Shown: piece after piece, positions 4,421-30,473 of the stretch | How the letters are laid out: each line of letters starts with the position of its first letter | How positions within the stretch are numbered: the first letter of the stretch is position 1 | Assembly: GCA_038203565.1 (NCBI GenBank) | Contig: JBBRDV010000012.1 | Coordinates: forward strand, 1-30,473 | Reading direction: 5' to 3' | Source of the DNA: Atribacterota bacterium | Lineage (GTDB): Bacteria; Atribacterota; Phoenicimicrobiia; Phoenicimicrobiales; Phoenicimicrobiaceae | DNA length: 30,473 bases | Notes under the pieces: generated by a model | Seen by the model: the letters and a program-made list of their open reading frames with translations, nothing else | Database searches by the model: none | What the model was told of the DNA's origin: nothing | Translations under genes and position numbers: made by a program

Positions 4421-5323
4421 ATGAAAATTAATTCTAGTAAACCAATAACTCAAAAATATAAAACATATATTGGATATTTAGAAGGTACCGTATCTGTTAT
4501 TATGAATACTATTCTTTTTGGCTTAAAATACTGGGTAGGAATTAGGACTTTTTCTATAGCCATAATTGCCGATGCCTGGCACACTCTCTCGGACACCCTT
4601 ACTTCCCTGGTGGTTATTATAGGTTTCAAAGTGTCATCCAAGCCAGCTGATAAGAAACACCCCTTTGGTCATGGTAGAGCAGAGGTGATTAGTTCTATTA
4701 TCATAGGAACTTTGCTACTTGTTGTAGGTATTAATTTCTTATTTGCATCAATTCATAGATTTAGAAATCAACAATCCGCCTCTTTCGAGATGCTTGCAAT
4801 TATAATGTTTACTATTTCAGTAATAGTAAAAGAAGGATTAGCTCAATATTCTTTTCGGCTCGGGAAAAAAATTAATTCCCAATCACTTAAAGCAGATGGT
4901 TGGCATCATAGAAGTGATGCAATAGTCTCTATGATGATTTTGGTAGGGATCTTTGTAGGAGATTATTTCTGGTGGATAGATAGTATAATGGGTATCTTAG
5001 TATCTTTAATGATATTTTATACTACTTATATAATTTTAAAAGAATCAATAAGTACTTTAATTGGAGAAGAACCGAATGAGACTTTTAAAGCAGATATTAA
5101 AAAAATTGTAACTCGGAGTATTTCTCACGATGTTAGCTTACACCATTTACATTCTCATATATATGGAGATAGCAAAGAATTAACCTTTCATATAAGATTG
5201 CCTGCAGATATGAAATTAGAAGAAGCTCACAAAATAGCAGAAAAGTTGGAAAAAGAGATAAAAAATGAAATGGATATTGATACTACCATCCATATAGAAC
5301 CAATTATCCCAATAAAAAGATAA
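4421..5323 (+). CDS. Cation diffusion facilitator (CDF) transporter, FieF-like
   Basis: ADAWHTLSD, KPADKKHPFGHGRAE, ADGWHHRSD, C-terminal EAH...IHIEP. Confidence 0.93.
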   Translation: MKINSSKPITQKYKTYIGYLEGTVSVIMNTILFGLKYWVGIRTFSIAIIADAWHTLSDTLTSLVVIIGFKVSSKPADKKHPFGHGRAEVISSIIIGTLLLVVGINFLFASIHRFRNQQSASFEMLAIIMFTISVIVKEGLAQYSFRLGKKINSQSLKADGWHHRSDAIVSMMILVGIFVGDYFWWIDSIMGILVSLMIFYTTYIILKESISTLIGEEPNETFKADIKKIVTRSISHDVSLHHLHSHIYGDSKELTFHIRLPADMKLEEAHKIAEKLEKEIKNEMDIDTTIHIEPIIPIKR

Positions 5324-13374: not shown

Positions 13375-14379
13375 ATGAAGTGGTATATTACCAAAAGATT
13401 ATTCATGTTAATCCCGGTACTATTAGGAGTATCTATTCTCGCCTTTTCTTTGATTCGTTTAGCTCCCGGTGACCCGGCAGTAACCATAGCCGGACAACAT
13501 GCCTCTCCCCAGGTTATCAGTGCTATCAGAGAAAAATACGGGTTAAATAAACCCCTCACTACACAATATTGGATCTGGCTGAAACAGGTTTTACATGGGG
13601 ATTTGGGACGTTCCATCGTCTCTAATGAATTCGTAGCCAAGGAAATATTGGAAAGATTTCCCAATACAATCGAACTGACAATGTTATCCATGTTTTTTGC
13701 TATCATTGTAGGTTGTATTGCCGGGATTATCTCTGCTTCGAGGCAGTATTCGATTTTTGATTATAGTATTATGGGGCTTGCCCTTTTTGGCGTATCAATG
13801 CCTGTTTTCTGGTTGGGAATTATGTTAATGATGATTTTTGGTGTTTGGTTGAGATGGCTTCCCATCAGTGGGCGCATAAGTATGATGATTTCTTTCCAAC
13901 GAATTACCGGTTTTTACCTCCTGGATAGTCTCATGACCGGCAATTTCGCAGCTTTCATAAGTTCACTTCGTTATTTAATTTTACCTTCCATTGCTTTATC
14001 TACTATTCCGATGGCTACCATTGCCCGGGTAACCAGGTCGAGTATGTTAGAAGTATTAAGACAGGATTTTATAAGAACTGAAAGGGCTAAAGGATTATCA
14101 GAGAGAATGGTCATCTATAAACATGCGGTAAGAAATGCTATGATTCCGGTCATTACCGTAATCGGATTGAATTTTGGCTTACTGCTTGCCGGAGCTATCT
14201 TGACAGAAACAGTCTTTTCCTGGCCCGGAATAGGCAGATATGTGGTCAACGGAGTAACTATGAGAGATTATCCTGTAGTACAGGGGTGTGTATTGTTTTT
14301 TGCTTTAATGTTTGTAATCGTGAATTTAATAACCGATATTTTGTATCTTTATATTGATCCAAGAATTCATTACGGATAG
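13375..14379 (+). CDS. dppB: Peptide ABC transporter permease
   Basis: PGDPA, GDLGRS, SMPVFWLG, EAA loop DFIRTERAKGL, ETVFSWPGIG. Confidence 0.93.
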   Translation: MKWYITKRLFMLIPVLLGVSILAFSLIRLAPGDPAVTIAGQHASPQVISAIREKYGLNKPLTTQYWIWLKQVLHGDLGRSIVSNEFVAKEILERFPNTIELTMLSMFFAIIVGCIAGIISASRQYSIFDYSIMGLALFGVSMPVFWLGIMLMMIFGVWLRWLPISGRISMMISFQRITGFYLLDSLMTGNFAAFISSLRYLILPSIALSTIPMATIARVTRSSMLEVLRQDFIRTERAKGLSERMVIYKHAVRNAMIPVITVIGLNFGLLLAGAILTETVFSWPGIGRYVVNGVTMRDYPVVQGCVLFFALMFVIVNLITDILYLYIDPRIHYG

Positions 14380-25420: not shown

Positions 25421-25882
25421 ATGCCAAAAAATAATGGTAAAGATATTAGCTTGATGCAAGAAGCCTTGAAAGAGGCAGAAATTGCTTATTCCCGCCAGGA
25501 AATACCAATTGGAGCAGTAGTTGTTTACCAAAATAAAATAATTGCCCGAGCTCATAATCGAAAAGAAGAATTACAGGATCCTACTGCTCACGCTGAAATC
25601 TTAGCCCTGCAGCAAACTGCTCGATATTTCGGAAGCTGGCATTTAGAAGATATAGATCTTTATGTTACTTTAGAACCTTGTCCGATGTGTGCCTATGCTA
25701 TGCTTCAAGCCAGAATTAAAAGATTAATTTTCGGTACTTTTGATCCTAAGGCTGGAGCAGCAGGCAGCATTATCAATATTGTACAGGATAAGAGATTTAA
25801 TCATCAAATAGAAGTAGTAAGCGGTGTTTTAGAAAAGGAATGTAGTTTAATTTTACAAAAATTCTTTCAGGAAAGACGATAA
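25421..25882 (+). CDS. tadA: tRNA adenosine(34) deaminase
   Basis: EIPIGAV, DPTAHAE, TLEPCPMC, DPKAGA, FNH. Confidence 0.95.
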   Translation: MPKNNGKDISLMQEALKEAEIAYSRQEIPIGAVVVYQNKIIARAHNRKEELQDPTAHAEILALQQTARYFGSWHLEDIDLYVTLEPCPMCAYAMLQARIKRLIFGTFDPKAGAAGSIINIVQDKRFNHQIEVVSGVLEKECSLILQKFFQERR

Positions 25883-25889
25883 TTTAATT

Positions 25890-25984
25890 GGAGAGGTGGC
25901 TGAGTTTGGTTGAAAGCGCTCGACTCGAAATCGAGTAGGCAGGTAGTCCCTGTCTCGCGGGTTCGAATCCCGCCCTCTCCGCCA
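25890..25984 (+). tRNA. tRNA-Ser(CGA)
   Basis: GGAGAGG/CCTCTCC acceptor stem, CTCGA-CT-CGA-AA-TCGAG anticodon arm, long variable arm, G73-CCA. Confidence 0.96.
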
Positions 25985-26125
25985 GTTGGAAAATGCGGCA
26001 TTTTGCACCATCACTCACCAGCATTCATCCGTTGGTTTACGGTTTCTAAAAACTGCCAAAGAACCTGAAAAAATGTTTGCTCGAACTTCATTCTGGGCTA
26101 AAAGCGGGCTTCCCTCATTTTTAAT

Positions 26126-26191
26126 TTGATTGAATTCATAAAATCTGATAGTATTATATTGAAAGAATAGCAGAACACTTTTATACTATCA
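26126..26191 (+). promoter_or_regulatory. Tandem sigma70 promoters overlapped by a 9-bp inverted repeat
   Basis: TTGATT-N17-TAGTAT (26126-26154) and TTGAAA-N17-TATACT (26159-26187); TGATAGTAT 26146-26154 / ATACTATCA 26183-26191. Confidence 0.55.
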
Positions 26192-26204
26192 AATAATTGA
26201 AAAT

Positions 26205-26411
26205 ATGGCAACAGAAATTAACATAGGCGAGAATATAAAGAAGTATCGAAATAAGCAGAGATTATCCCAAGAGGGTTTTGCTAAAAAGTCTGGCGTGAAA
26301 TACACTACCCTGACCAAAATTGAGAGCAATGTAATTAAAAAGCCTTCCGTGCTTATCATGGCAAAATTAGCTAAGTCATTAGGCGTTTCAATTGAGGATT
26401 TAATCAAGTAA
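26205..26411 (+). CDS. XRE-family HTH regulator (controller-protein-like)
   Basis: IGENIKKYR...LSQE..AKKSGV....LTKIES...KPS....KLAKSLGVSIEDL. Confidence 0.9.
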   Translation: MATEINIGENIKKYRNKQRLSQEGFAKKSGVKYTTLTKIESNVIKKPSVLIMAKLAKSLGVSIEDLIK

Positions 26412-26416
26412 TAAAT

Positions 26417-28228
26417 ATGCCAAAATTAAAAGATATCCCAAAAATAGATCGCCCAAGAGAAAGATTTATAAAAAAGGGGCCTGATGCACTTTCCAAAAGT
26501 GACCTTTTAGCTATTTTGCTTGGAAGTGGGATTAAAGGAAAAAATGTTCAAAAACTTGCTCAACAAATAATAAGTAAATTTGGCAAAAAATTCTTGGATA
26601 TAAGCATTGCTGATCTGTTGAAGATTTCAGGAATTGGACAAGCAAAAGCGTTGCAGGTTATATCAGCAATTTCTTTAGTGAAAAGATTTTACGAAGAAAA
26701 TCACACAACTGATATTGTTATTAAAAATTCAAAAGATGTTTTATCTCTTACTTATGATTTACAGGATAAGAAAAAAGAATATCTTGTGTGTTTATACCTG
26801 AACGCAAGAAATGTTTTAATAAAAAAAGAAATAATTAGCATCGGATTACTTGATAAAAGTTTATTACACCCAAGAGAAATTTTTTATCCAGCTGTTGAGT
26901 TAAATTCCGCAAGTATCATTTTAGTACATAATCATCCAACAGGAGATCCAACTCCGAGCGAAAAAGATAGTGGGATGATTGAAAGAATTGTTCAGGCAGG
27001 CGGGATAATGGGGATTTCTGTTATCGATTTTATTATTACTGCAAGGAATGGAAATTGTAGTTTTTATGAAATCTTGAGGGGTCGCGATCAAACCGTTGAT
27101 TATGTTGCTGAAGGCGTACAGGGAACATTATTTAATCTATTAGAAATAAAAAAACCAACTTATGAGGTAAGCGCGGAAACAATCAAGGAAAATTACTTTT
27201 ATATTCCTCAAGTAAAAAAAAATCATGTCCAATTACAGAATCGTAGATATGTTGGCAGTAAGCATAAGCTAATAAAGTGGATTTTTTCCATTATCAATAA
27301 AGAGTGCGAAGGAAACTCTTTTGCTGATGTTTTTGCAGGAACAGGAATTGTGTCAGCTATAGCTGCAAAACATTTCAGAGAGATTATACTAAACGATTTC
27401 CTTTATTCAAATTATACAATTTATCAAGCTTTTTTCGGCATTGGTGAGTGGGATCAAAATAAAATTGATAATATTATCAAAAATTATAACAATATTTACG
27501 GTGAAGATCTGGAAGACAATTATTTTTCAAAGTGTTTTGGGGGTAAATATTTTAGTCAAAATTCATCAAAGATTATTGGTTTTATTAGAGAAAACATAGA
27601 AGAAAACAAAAACAATCTTACTGAGAAAGAATACCACATACTCATTGCTTCATTACTGTATGCTGTTGATAAAATTGCTAATACCGTTGGTCATTATGAT
27701 GCTTATTTTAAAAAGGATTTTTTAAAAGATGATTTTTTTATGAAGCCGATTGATCCTATTAGCGTCAAAAATGTTTCTATTTTTAGAGAGGATACCAACA
27801 TTTTAGTAAAAAAAATAAAAGTAGATATTGCCTACATTGATCCACCTTATAACTCTAGACAATATAGCAGGTTTTACCATGTTTTAGAGACATTAACTAA
27901 ATGGGATAAGCCAAAATTATATGGAGTAGCATTAAAGCCGGAGCCAGAAAATATGAGTGATTATTGTAAAACTCAAGCTAAAAATAAGTTTGCTGAATTG
28001 GTAAAAGATATTAATGCTAAGTATTTGGTCGTGTCATATAATAATACTTACGATTCGAAAAGTAATTCATCGAGAAATAAAATTACACTCCAAGAAATCG
28101 AAAAGATTTTGAACACAAAAGGAAGAACTAAGATTTTTGAAAAGAGTTATAGACATTTCAATGCCGGAAACACAAATTTTAATAACCACAAAGAATATTT
28201 GTTTGTAACTAAGGTTAATTATGAATAA
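26417..28228 (+). CDS. RadC (UPF0758, HhH+JAB) fused to a D12-class N6-adenine DNA methyltransferase
   Basis: N-half: RPRER...LLAILLGSG, GIGQAKA, HPREIF, HNHPTGDPTPSEKD. C-half: NRRYVGSK, DVFAGTG, YIDPPYN. Confidence 0.9.
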   Translation: MPKLKDIPKIDRPRERFIKKGPDALSKSDLLAILLGSGIKGKNVQKLAQQIISKFGKKFLDISIADLLKISGIGQAKALQVISAISLVKRFYEENHTTDIVIKNSKDVLSLTYDLQDKKKEYLVCLYLNARNVLIKKEIISIGLLDKSLLHPREIFYPAVELNSASIILVHNHPTGDPTPSEKDSGMIERIVQAGGIMGISVIDFIITARNGNCSFYEILRGRDQTVDYVAEGVQGTLFNLLEIKKPTYEVSAETIKENYFYIPQVKKNHVQLQNRRYVGSKHKLIKWIFSIINKECEGNSFADVFAGTGIVSAIAAKHFREIILNDFLYSNYTIYQAFFGIGEWDQNKIDNIIKNYNNIYGEDLEDNYFSKCFGGKYFSQNSSKIIGFIRENIEENKNNLTEKEYHILIASLLYAVDKIANTVGHYDAYFKKDFLKDDFFMKPIDPISVKNVSIFREDTNILVKKIKVDIAYIDPPYNSRQYSRFYHVLETLTKWDKPKLYGVALKPEPENMSDYCKTQAKNKFAELVKDINAKYLVVSYNNTYDSKSNSSRNKITLQEIEKILNTKGRTKIFEKSYRHFNAGNTNFNNHKEYLFVTKVNYE

Positions 28229-29126
28229 TAAAATCAAAAGATCTCCACTGTTTTATGTTGGAGATAAATACAAGTTAATGAAGCAATTAATTAATTTATT
28301 TCCGCAAGAAATAGTTAACTTTTATGAACTATTTGTGGGCGGAGGCACTGTATTTTTAAATGTTGAAGCAAAAAGATATTATTTAAACGATATAGATAAA
28401 AAACTTATTAATATACACAAATTTTTAATCAAAAATTCTAATAATTCAAACAATTTTTTTAAAAATGTTGAAAAAATAATACTTGAATATAATTTATCTA
28501 GGTCATATAAGGAAGATATAATTCCGGATTCGCTAAAAAAAGAATGGAAAAAAACTTATTTTGCTAGATTCAATAAAGAAGGATATGAAAAGCTGAGAGA
28601 GAGTGTCAATAATAATAGAAAAAATGACCCTTTGATTTTGTATATTTTACTTATATATGGTTTTAATAGAATGTTGAGATTTAATGGCGGGGGCAAATTT
28701 AATCTGCCGGTGGGAAATGTTGATTTTAATAAAAATGTTGTTAATGCTTTAAATAATTACTTTGGTTTTGTACGTGATAAAAAAATGACATTAAGTTCAA
28801 AAGATTTTAGAAAGTTTTTTTCTGAAAAAAAATATTCAAAAAACGATTTTGTTTATTTAGACCCTCCTTATTTAATAACTGCGAGCGAATACAATAAATT
28901 TTGGAATGAGAAATCTGAATCTGATTTATTAGACTTAATTGATAAATTAAATAAAAAAGGCGTTAAATTTGCATTATCAAATGTAACCCATTATAACGGA
29001 AGCAAAAATGAGTTATTGATTAAATGGATGAAAAAATACAAAACACATAAGATAGAGAGCAATTATATTAGTTATCACAATAACAGTAAAAAGGAAATTA
29101 AAGAGGTATTGATTACTAATTATTAA
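28221..29126 (+). CDS. Dam-family (D12) N6-adenine DNA methyltransferase
   Basis: RSPLFYVGDK, ELFVGGG, LNDID, FNLPVG, YLDPPY, FALSN, EVLITNY; 8-nt overlap with the upstream gene. Confidence 0.92.
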   Translation: MNNKIKRSPLFYVGDKYKLMKQLINLFPQEIVNFYELFVGGGTVFLNVEAKRYYLNDIDKKLINIHKFLIKNSNNSNNFFKNVEKIILEYNLSRSYKEDIIPDSLKKEWKKTYFARFNKEGYEKLRESVNNNRKNDPLILYILLIYGFNRMLRFNGGGKFNLPVGNVDFNKNVVNALNNYFGFVRDKKMTLSSKDFRKFFSEKKYSKNDFVYLDPPYLITASEYNKFWNEKSESDLLDLIDKLNKKGVKFALSNVTHYNGSKNELLIKWMKKYKTHKIESNYISYHNNSKKEIKEVLITNY

Positions 29127-29129
29127 ACT

Positions 29130-30473
29130 ATGAAAAAACGTCAATCTGAATACAAACCGTTGTTGTTTACTACGACACTTAGAAATCCTGAGCGATTAAA
29201 GGATTTTTTAACCATTTTTAGTGGATATGATGGCGAAATTTTGACGAATGAGGTTGTTGTGAAGGTCGCTAAAACCCTCATTCAAAAGGGGTTATATCAA
29301 CCTATGAAAGTTTCGCAAAGCATAAGAGATAAATGGGAAAACGAAATAGAATTAAGCGAAGCAGAATCCGAACGTGTACTTGCTGACAATCCGCAAAGTC
29401 ACAAAGAAGCAGGTTTTGATAAGGGTTGGGCATCAAGGTTTGATACTTGGTTCAAAATAGCCAAAGAATTGGGTTTTGTATGGTATTGGCAAAACGAGAA
29501 AATAGAGTTTTCGGAAAGCGGAAAAATGTTACTGGACAAAGAAAAACCCGAAAACGAACTAATGGTTTTTGCTAATGCTTTTGCTAAATATCAACGCCAC
29601 AATCCATTTCGCAGAGTTTTGAATAAAAATGTACCTTTGATTCTACTTATTCAGACAATCCAACTTTTAAACAAAGACCAAGATTTTAACGGTACAGGTA
29701 TTTCAAAATTAGAAATCCCTTTGTTGTTGTGTTGGAAAAATGATAATGCAGAAAGTCTATATCAGGAAATCAAAAAATTGCGAAAAAAATATGGCTATTC
29801 GCCAAGTAATGAAACGATTTTAGAGTTTTGTTACAGTTTATTAAATGAGACTAAACGGGACGATAATTCAATTTTAGGCGACTATCCTGATGATTTTATT
29901 CGCAAAATGCGTTTGACAGGTTTAATTTCTTTGCGTGGCGGTGGTCGTTTTATTGACATCAACACAAAAGAAATAGCAACAGTAGATTATATTTTGAAAA
30001 ATTATATTTCTTACCCAAATTTTACTTCTGAAAAACATTTTTTTGAGTATATCGGAACAGTTGATAATAATCTGATTGCAACGCTTTCAGTCTATAGGGC
30101 GCCTGTTAGAATCACAGACAAGGAATTAGAAAAATGGGTAAAACATTATGAATGGGAAACTATTAAAACTGAAATGCTCAATTTGGCACAAAAAAAATCT
30201 TCCGGAGATGACATCTTAAAAGTAATAGAACAACCTTTGCGTTTAGAGTTTTTGACTTCCTTAGCTATTCTAAAAAAACTGCCAAATGTAATAGTAAAGC
30301 CTAATTTTATTTCAGATGACGAAGGTTTGCCTACAAGTTTTGCATCAGGTGGCAATCCCGATATTGAATGTTTGGAAAATAAAGATACGGTTTTGGTAGA
30401 AGTTACACTTTTAACAGGTACACAACAGCACATCAGAGAATCATTTTCGGTACGAAGACATTTAGAAGAATAT
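29130..30473 (+). CDS. AlwI-family type II(S) restriction endonuclease (partial, runs off the window)
   Basis: Open for 448 codons from ATG 29130 (missing from the ORF track): KPLLFTTTLRNPER, HKEAGFDKGWASRFDTW, R.TGLI, DDEGLP..FASGGNPDIE...VEVTL. Confidence 0.85.
   Translation, partial: MKKRQSEYKPLLFTTTLRNPERLKDFLTIFSGYDGEILTNEVVVKVAKTLIQKGLYQPMKVSQSIRDKWENEIELSEAESERVLADNPQSHKEAGFDKGWASRFDTWFKIAKELGFVWYWQNEKIEFSESGKMLLDKEKPENELMVFANAFAKYQRHNPFRRVLNKNVPLILLIQTIQLLNKDQDFNGTGISKLEIPLLLCWKNDNAESLYQEIKKLRKKYGYSPSNETILEFCYSLLNETKRDDNSILGDYPDDFIRKMRLTGLISLRGGGRFIDINTKEIATVDYILKNYISYPNFTSEKHFFEYIGTVDNNLIATLSVYRAPVRITDKELEKWVKHYEWETIKTEMLNLAQKKSSGDDILKVIEQPLRLEFLTSLAILKKLPNVIVKPNFISDDEGLPTSFASGGNPDIECLENKDTVLVEVTLLTGTQQHIRESFSVRRHLEEY

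Follow-up and report, generated by a model that had tools for sequence, protein, structure and literature searches.

The fusion gene and its cassette

A 30,473-nucleotide (nt) stretch of an Atribacterota genome (contig JBBRDV010000012.1 of assembly GCA_038203565.1), referred to below as the window, carries at positions 26417..28228 of its forward strand (+) a gene in which a complete RadC protein is joined in frame to a D12-class N6-adenine DNA methyltransferase. Most bacterial lineages have RadC, as do many plasmids and prophages; its name goes back to a repair phenotype that has since been disputed. Judged by sequence, the gene is the first methyltransferase (M1) of a horizontally mobile AlwI-family type IIS restriction-modification (R-M) cassette, composed of RadC-M1, a second methyltransferase (M2), a restriction endonuclease (R) and, optionally, a gene of the XRE family. 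The original prediction, made from the letters of the window, had named this locus the best candidate for an undescribed system; what was found instead is an ordinary AlwI-family type IIS R-M cassette.

The same prediction had described a single uninterrupted 603-amino-acid (aa) open reading frame (ORF) joining RadC through a linker of about 50 aa to an N6-adenine methyltransferase, inside an XRE-M1-M2-REase operon, and the ORF listing and Pfam matches agreed with it on both counts. The ORF has an ATG start and zero internal stops, and its division into parts follows the ORF listing, Pfam and the alignment of relatives. RadC, known also as a stand-alone protein, here occupies aa 1-220 of the 603-aa protein: a helix-hairpin-helix (HhH) part (UPF0758_N, aa 5-78, 26429..26650, +; Pfam PF20582, E 1.5e-22) is followed by a JAB/MPN+ domain (aa 102-218, 26720..27070, +; PF04002, E 1.5e-33) with the residues E121, H171-x-H173, S181 and D184. 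Next come a linker (aa 221-262, 27077..27202, +), which is the least conserved part of the protein, and the methyltransferase M1 (27203..28228, +; Pfam match at aa 278-540, PF02086, E 6.1e-35), in which the motifs FAGTG and DPPY were invariant across the window and 31 relatives. The fusion scored 206.8 bits against the NCBIfam RadC equivalog NF000642 and passed its cut-off of 180.

The JAB motif was intact, as originally described. In the window and 31 related fusions E121, H171, H173 and D184 were invariant and S181 was kept in at least 90%, and all five residues were the same in every one of 15 RadC sequences, fused and free. The reading of the usual LDHII as IDFII was likewise confirmed (V-I-D-F-I-I at aa 202-207, with D-F instead of D-H at aa 204-205). 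This H-to-F change was considered as a sign of inactivation and rejected, since the changed position is no part of the metal-site motif and the change is characteristic of one sub-clade (8 of 15 rows).

An AlphaFold2 model, built on an input alignment of 72 rows, had a mean predicted local distance difference test score (pLDDT) of 85.2 and a predicted template-modelling score (pTM) of 0.61, and consisted of two confident domains (pLDDT 85-98) joined by the less confident aa 221-262 (56-77). The sole solved relative by sequence was PDB 2QLC, a RadC JAB domain (E 4.1e-22). Fold comparison superposed the JAB part of the model on this structure with a template-modelling (TM) score of 0.90, and gave the C-terminal part a fold like those of EcoDam, DpnM and T4 Dam.

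M2, a second adenine methyltransferase of the D12/Dam family (301 aa, 28221..29126, +; PF02086, E 1.6e-30), overlaps M1 by 8 nt, contains DPPY and scored 147.6 bits against TIGR00571 (dam; cut-off 114.85). M1 and M2 presumably provide one adenine methyltransferase for each strand of an asymmetric site. The endonuclease gene (29130..30473, +) is cut by the contig end after its first 448 aa, on which the AlwI-family type IIS assignment is based (RE_AlwI PF09491, E 2.9e-38, 132.5 bits versus a cut-off of 23.1); its full length is 555 aa in a 97%-identical relative, locus L003. A weak sequence match to the catalytic region of N.BspD6I and to its small subunit was also seen. The AlwI family includes AlwI, MlyI, PleI and N.BstNBI, and N.BspD6I/R.BspD6I are its solved relatives; systems of this kind cut some way off an asymmetric site, and methylation blocks the cut.

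Recurrence and distribution of the fusion

A protein search covered 5.8 billion protein clusters, of which the best 120 matches were considered. All 120 carried PF04002, PF02086 and PF20582, at 76-97% identity and a length of 566-630 aa; the proteins go by the database names 'DNA repair protein RadC' or 'adenine-specific DNA-methyltransferase'. A genomic scan using one genome per prokaryotic species yielded 40 loci, comprising 33 fused genes, two loci starting inside M1, four with a headless M1 and one wreck. The architecture search and tabulation of neighbours that had been proposed for this locus thus established that the fusion is not unique to the window (120/120 best clusters, 33/40 loci).

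In all 31 complete fused loci the frame stayed open for 600-605 aa, counted from the start that they share; L004 and L010, where contig ends cut the gene, are left out of this count. The RadC-M1 junction was bridged without gaps by two DNA runs from other studies (26382-27690 and 26213-29200) and spanned by two metatranscriptome libraries from two studies (26661-28167 and 26974-27787), so that the interval 27060-27240, for which the absence of a stop was to be confirmed with reads, proved stop-free; substitutions in the bridging contigs introduced zero stops. RNA-library contigs may contain DNA, which counts against taking these two as proof of expression and leaves them compatible with transcription. 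An assembly artefact or a lately lost stop codon, the latter named at the outset as something that could undo the claim, was rejected on the strength of the 120 clusters, the 31 open frames and the junction-spanning contigs, together with a ratio of non-synonymous to synonymous substitution (dN/dS) of 0.048 in the JAB part.

The order of the three genes was constant. M2 lay 3' of the fusion in 31 of 31 loci with continuing sequence, and an AlwI-family endonuclease then followed M2 in 28 of 28. Identity of the endonuclease to that of the window fell into classes of ~80-96% (18 loci), 50-57% (seven loci) and 26-31% (three loci), versus 76-84% for the methyltransferases.

According to record titles, carriers belong to Atribacteria, Firestonebacteria, many lineages of the candidate phyla radiation (CPR)/Patescibacteria, Nitrospirae, Planctomycetes including Brocadiaceae, Gammaproteobacteria, Desulfobacterota (Desulfaltia), Eubacteriales and Margulisiibacteriota. 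One 2.3-kb carrier contig was binned as Nanoarchaeota, and the bin was judged untrustworthy. Within the window's own family (30 genomes), the full fusion occurred in two, namely the source genome itself (G000) and a genome of another genus (G031, 97% identity); in the others there was at most a free RadC (34-47% identity), several of these genomes being incomplete. The cassette is accessory and patchily spread.

The source genome also encodes a free RadC of its own on contig C64, 34% identical to the fused head. Contig C86 (L105:5782-6036), 6 kb long, ends within a third RadC-like HhH start, located just after purN/purD/purH-like genes; the 85 aa present share 48% identity with aa 4-80 of the fusion. 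Any JAB part that it may have lies outside the assembly, and the genome has only two JAB matches.

Conservation and selection

dN/dS was estimated by the Nei-Gojobori method in pairs with a whole-gene dS of 0.05-1.5 (107-111 pairs), giving 0.052 for the HhH part, 0.048 for the JAB part, 0.107 for the linker and 0.033 for M1. Synonymous sites were near saturation (proportion of synonymous differences, pS, 0.63-0.71 in all 496 pairs). Mean column identity in the window and 31 relatives was 0.88 for HhH (aa 1-95), 0.85 for JAB, 0.74 for the linker and 0.89 for M1, with seven of 42 columns invariant in the linker and 168 of 341 in M1. Low dN/dS combined with near-saturated synonymous sites points to a fusion family that is old and constrained by strong purifying selection, and to no recent accident.

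RadC as a portable N-terminal head

An exhaustive search of 1.84 billion representatives at 50% identity, followed by Pfam, extended the picture beyond the window's own family. A second, divergent RadC-D12 fusion (P0122) was 40% identical. The RadCs nearest to the head in the window (55-63% identity) were attached to C5-cytosine methylases (P0130, P0138 and P0141), and two more enzymes, one C5 (P0232) and one N6_N4 (P0209), also bore RadC heads. The free RadCs in this set of representatives were 218-275 aa long and 39-50% identical to the head in the window.

A quick tree of 42 RadC domains, with support from the Shimodaira-Hasegawa-like approximate likelihood ratio test (SH-aLRT) only, left 24 of its 39 inner branches unresolved, including most of the deep ones. 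One supported group contained ten rows, all of them fusions or fragments (SH-aLRT 92), and another united P0122, P0232 and P0243 (support 100), while P0209 stood apart; D12 and C5 partners were interleaved among the fused heads. On this tree the fused heads appear to form at least two lineages.

Exchange between enzymes was visible at locus L079, where the head was 70-78% identical to the window's family, M1 45-47% and the endonuclease 26%; given this mismatch between head and M1, their histories therefore differ. A metagenome scan with the RadC-C5 fusion P0141 as query returned headless C5 methylases at 23 of 24 loci, and the sole RadC head in that scan was again that of L079, on a D12 M1. 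These comparisons show that RadC head plus linker is a portable module, carried by D12, C5 and N6/N4 methyltransferases and swapped between M1 lineages. No evidence for a functional link between RadC and DNA methylation is stronger than this recurrence of one kind of head on three methyltransferase families. Selection on the fusion and its recurrence on these three families argue that RadC works together with the methyltransferase, and a functional coupling of the two is, in our estimation, likely.

Operon and surroundings

Upstream of the cassette lie tadA (153-aa ORF, 25421-25882; Pfam MafB19-deam/dCMP_cyt_deam_1 and the same position in L003) and tRNA-Ser (cga) (25890..25984, +; ARAGORN), with the cassette starting ~200 nt downstream of the latter. 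G+C content drops from ~0.37 to 0.25-0.30 across the cassette. At 26096..26119 (+) the window has a copy (22/24 nt) of a 24-nt repeat, which in L003 is a perfect direct repeat (4891-4914 and 13466-13489) downstream of tRNA-Ser. The L003 repeats bracket 8.5 kb in which the cassette (XRE, RadC-M1, M2 and R) is accompanied by an LPO_1073/Abi_alpha-like gene and a few ORFs that look metabolic; the block between them showed no integrase. The copy in the window is the left one, and the right one lies past the contig end. The LPO_1073/Abi_alpha-like gene, which in L003 is located 3' of R, was considered as a cassette component and rejected, being present in one of 40 loci.

A 19-nt inverted repeat, 79% complementary (26143..26194, +; arms 26143-26161 and 26176-26194), overlies a sigma-70-like promoter site at 26159-26187 (TTGAAA, 17 nt, TATACT), 5' of the XRE gene. 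Together the two may be the operator and promoter of the operon; they are consensus matches only, and promoter-like sites numbered 24 versus 23.1 expected in shuffles. The XRE-family helix-turn-helix (HTH) protein (68 aa, 26205..26411, +; Pfam HTH_3, E 5.2e-15) is a putative controller of the operon. Its gene precedes the methyltransferases, whereas C-protein controllers usually precede R. With the query used, a homologue adjoined the fusion in five of the 33 fused loci and was located ~0.86 kb upstream in five more. An ImmR/ImmA-like repressor/protease pair formed by XRE and JAB was set aside, with XRE near only 10/33 fused loci for that query and a DUF4357 gene in between in five of them.

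The DUF4357/RAMA gene (282 aa), absent from the window, was found directly before the fusion in ten loci (e.g. L012:6150-6995) and after R in two (L017 and L038), one of these cassettes being RadC-less. XRE and DUF4357 genes are optional companions of the cassette.

Contigs from three runs of other studies match the window from 26382 onwards, and the sequence before 26382 differs in all of them; a recombination boundary therefore falls 35 nt upstream of the start of RadC, within the 3'-terminal part of the XRE gene. In L003 (5000-5202) the XRE match is split between two frames (aa 1-50 and aa 50-68), which suggests a frameshift or an assembly error.

An attempt to find the recognition site through word avoidance in the 1.97-Mb genome revealed no strongly avoided 5-mer: the lowest observed-to-expected ratio (O/E) was 0.70 (GGCCC/GGGCC), with GAGTC at 0.87 (rank 27 of 512) and GGATC at 0.91 (rank 43). 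GATC was much rarer than expected in the genome (7188 observed versus 13068 expected from trinucleotides, O/E 0.55), and another GATC-specific system elsewhere in the genome may account for this.

A clamp-binding-like motif in the linker

Although the linker is the least conserved part of the fusion, it contains a block in which Y229, Q235 and F239 were invariant and V230, G233 and L238 were conserved in at least 90% of 32 sequences (Y-V-x-x-G-x-Q-x-x-L-F). Its second half, Q235-G-T-L-F239 (27119..27133, +), following Y229-V-x-x-G, resembles the QxxLF type of clamp-binding motif. According to passages of PMC6511837, the bacterial clamp-binding motif has the loose consensus QL(D/S)LF, tolerates variation and is located in flexible regions. 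The motif in the window likewise lies in a flexible linker (pLDDT 56-77) between domains at 85-98.

The pattern Q..[LMIF]F was present in seven of nine RadC-methyltransferase representatives, in D12 as well as C5 linkers, in none of five tailed free RadCs, and was absent from M2 and R. In the N-terminal extensions of 87 headless M1 homologues (3249 residues) it occurred five times versus 0.97 expected, a number reached in three of 2000 shuffles; the matches (QLPLF, QRTLF, QGRLF, QLALF and QSSFF) were all located 15-38 aa before the core, compared with 37 in the window. At L037, where RadC has been lost and the linker kept, 'VQGTLF' persists without RadC, and the proteins of L040 and L041 start with 'MEIQRSFF'.

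For complex prediction, the linker (aa 221-262) was paired with two chains of DnaN from the same genome. The score was 0.55 (runs 0.55, 0.55 and 0.51; best of three controls 0.00), with contact agreement between runs of at least 46% and a partner pLDDT of at least 42, and lends weak support to binding. The mark applied was reached by 116 of 157 solved complexes and two of 215 mismatched pairs, and passing scores of 0.60 or less comprised only 18 of the 157 solved complexes together with both passing mismatches.

Several points tell against a clamp-binding reading. QGTLF matches the consensus at Q1, L4 and F5 and has G instead of L at position 2; two of the nine RadC-methyltransferase representatives (P0141 and P0209) do not have the motif, and it is found in only five of the 58 headless homologues with an N-terminal extension; the pattern behind all these counts was chosen after the data had been seen. 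The linker-DnaN score falls in a band that is more often wrong than right unless the interaction is likely beforehand, and, clamp-peptide complexes having already been solved, the pass may reflect likeness only. Docking of the linker on the beta clamp, as predicted, is something we entertain while leaning against it.

Proposed mechanism

As a whole, the explanation we favour, with a confidence slightly above even, is that a selected accessory RadC head ties M1 to DNA during its synthesis or uptake. Head and linker would place the methyltransferase on DNA in synthesis or newly entered into the cell, the HhH part providing DNA contact without sequence specificity and the conserved QxxLF in the flexible linker docking on the beta sliding clamp. 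Methylation of sites on newly made or incoming DNA would then precede cutting by the endonuclease. The JAB domain would probably act on a nucleic-acid substrate at that place, following the published view of Iyer and co-authors.

A farther-reaching form of this proposal makes RadC itself a replisome-associated factor, whose head and QxxLF linker on the clamp would turn adenine and cytosine methyltransferases into fork-coupled 'maintenance' enzymes, a counterpart of DNMT1-PCNA, with a JAB step on nascent or incoming DNA. We regard this form as doubtful.

The coupling of M1 to DNA in synthesis or uptake has to be set against a number of observations. DNA binding, clamp binding and catalysis by RadC are putative, and in the AlphaFold model, at a pTM of 0.61, the position of the head with respect to M1 is not reliable. 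At two loci, L038 (M1 76% identical) and L040 (68%), each of M1, M2 and R is intact, with no RadC within 7 kb. At L039 an in-frame internal deletion has removed RadC except for its first ~10 and last ~30 residues, and on plasmids of cultured Firmicutes the M1 of the operon (57% identity) is headless or has an HTH-like head. L039 (6386-13560) was also observed to be decaying, M1 and R each being split by ~1.3-1.6 kb of inserted DNA.

RadC is not obligatory, because headless relatives keep M1-M2-R. Among M1 homologues at 35-55% identity, other domains occupy the same N-terminal position: HTH_3 in P0124, P0131 and P0201, LexA_DNA_bind plus Peptidase_S24 in P0155, and Peptidase_S24 in P0128. In the set of P0155, P0128 and P0152 (LexA-like, S24 peptidase or AAA_21) an AAA_21 ATPase was seen fused to a distant M1 homologue, and P0155 has a complete LexA-like repressor (DNA-binding domain and S24 peptidase) followed by QLPLF. 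The RadC head is thus an accessory that the core system can do without, one of several alternative N-terminal heads. The idea of the original prediction that RadC is a working part of the system thus stands insofar as the fusion is selected and recurs on three methyltransferase families, and fails insofar as the part can be missing, as in L038 and L040; a role in scanning, processing or control, which it had also suggested, was not supported by any result.

Alternative explanations

The alternative heads bear most directly on a regulatory or establishment function, in which the head would set the timing or amount of methyltransferase versus endonuclease on entry into a cell, with JAB perhaps acting as a peptidase in the manner of LexA-like heads, which join a DNA-binding domain to a self-cleaving peptidase. 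HTH-headed methyltransferases such as M.SsoII autoregulate. The HTH_3, LexA_DNA_bind and Peptidase_S24 heads at the position of RadC fit such a function, as do the staphylococcal plasmid M1 described below, with its 80-aa HTH-like head, and a separate HTH_17 plus Peptidase_S24 (LexA-like) gene directly upstream of the RadC remnant at L039; RadC, like LexA, consists of a DNA-binding part and a part with a peptidase fold. An HhH domain, however, binds DNA without sequence specificity and is a poor fit for an operator-specific repressor, and the window already has a separate XRE gene and a candidate operator upstream. For the query used, only 10 of the 33 fused loci had an XRE nearby, so that XRE and JAB form no constant pair, and according to passages of PMC5512222 Iyer and co-authors argue that RadC is without the groove of peptidase JABs. 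We consider a regulatory head unlikely.

Patchiness (two of 30 genomes in the window's family) combined with a spread across many phyla would suit a counter-defence or establishment passenger, a head that aids the spread of the cassette or its carrier, for instance by dealing with incoming single-stranded DNA or resident restriction, and takes no part in restriction itself. Parts of the literature point the same way: on conjugative elements, fusions link RadC to the anti-restriction protein ArdC, to primases and to helicases (passages of PMC3239186 and PMC5512222), 'RadC/ArdB antirestriction' modules are located on defence islands (passages of PMC12458937, a 2025 preprint), and RadC adjoins DUF3085 on broad-host-range plasmids (passages of PMC12826799). 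Yet none of 37 pattern matches on the viral contigs searched encoded a relative of the fusion, none of 2362 plasmid records matching part of the fusion protein covered at least 80% of its length, and conjugation or integration genes were not seen beside the fusion in the loci read. The head is, moreover, tied specifically to a methyltransferase, and we think a passenger role distinctly improbable.

A neutral frozen fusion, in which a chance upstream RadC was fused once and still performs its ordinary cellular job, would explain why headless relatives work without the head, judged by their intact ORFs; the free RadC on contig C64 of the same genome could also be cited in its favour. Heads of at least two lineages nevertheless occur on three unrelated methyltransferase families, have been swapped between M1 lineages and form a clade of their own apart from free RadCs, under strong purifying selection and with saturated synonymous sites. 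This speaks for a combination selected more than once, and a neutral fusion seems to us very improbable.

Least probable of all is a self-processing polyprotein, in which JAB would cleave the linker to free RadC and M1 and the fusion would merely ensure co-expression: JAB/MPN+ domains are metallopeptidases elsewhere, peptidase domains process polyvalent proteins of mobile elements (passages of PMC5512222), the catalytic residues are intact and the linker is flexible, but the linker has no Gly-Gly-type site, its conserved residues resemble a docking motif, and RadC JABs are thought not to bind ubiquitin-like tails (passages of the same paper).

Significance

A conserved, selected and repeatedly re-created fusion ties RadC to one defined reaction that is easy to assay, the methylation of specific DNA sites by a restriction system. 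The three-gene cassette makes the function of RadC experimentally approachable, with methylation kinetics, self-restriction and establishment in naive cells as read-outs. If clamp docking is true, this would be, as far as is known, the first bacterial restriction-system methyltransferase coupled to the replisome, and if the replisome reading is true, a cellular place of action could be assigned to the RadC family. Should the head prove dispensable in all assays, the association would reflect mobility and not mechanism.

A search of the main texts of freely accessible papers found neither a RadC fused to a methyltransferase nor a restriction methyltransferase bound to the clamp. In passages of a 2025 review, RadC-like DinG is still without any work (PMC11981726), and in those of a 2026 paper RadC is still a 'putative nuclease' (PMC12826799).

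Comparison with known systems

Eukaryotic DNMT1 binds PCNA through a PCNA-interacting protein (PIP) box, which tethers maintenance methylation to the clamp. The likeness to the window is one of analogy only: in both, a short Q-x-x-hydrophobic-aromatic motif lies in a flexible region N-terminal to the methyltransferase domain. The protein families are unrelated, and clamp binding of the window's linker is a prediction with weak support.

The HTH- and LexA-like-headed M1 homologues carry their extra domain at the same N-terminal position as RadC, and P0155 has the canonical QLPLF between head and core. HTH- and LexA-like heads are sequence-specific DNA binders; the HhH part of RadC is not, and RadC adds a JAB domain.

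Published RadC fusions have as partners HhH, ArdC-N/ArdC, a DnaG-type primase and a DinG/Rad3 helicase ('RadC-like DinG'), with function inferred from context in the passages concerned (PMC3239186, PMC5512222, PMC11981726). As far as these passages go, what they have in common with the window is a RadC attached to an enzyme that handles DNA, encoded on mobile or conflict-related DNA. The main-text passages of the three papers name no DNA-methyltransferase partner in an R-M operon, and supplementary architecture lists may include one.

Free RadC/YicR (UPF0758) shares PF20582, PF04002 and the full E...HxH...S..D motif with the head in the window. It is ~220-245 aa long, whereas the window's RadC forms the N-terminal third of a 603-aa enzyme and belongs to a clade of fusions or fragments only.

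The closest arrangement in a cultured bacterium was found on a mobilizable plasmid of Staphylococcus epidermidis (NZ_CP069955.1), in which an M1 57% identical over aa 273-600 is followed by a Dam-family M2 and by a gene annotated 'AlwI family type II restriction endonuclease'; like operons are present on Enterococcus, Lactococcus and Macrococcoides plasmids. The staphylococcal M1 (412 aa) has an 80-aa HTH-like head without a Pfam match, and neither RadC nor QxxLF. With AlwI-family type IIS R-M systems in general the cassette shares the RE_AlwI endonuclease, two D12/Dam-type methyltransferases and the order M1-M2-R, and it differs from them in that the M1 of the window bears a complete N-terminal RadC.

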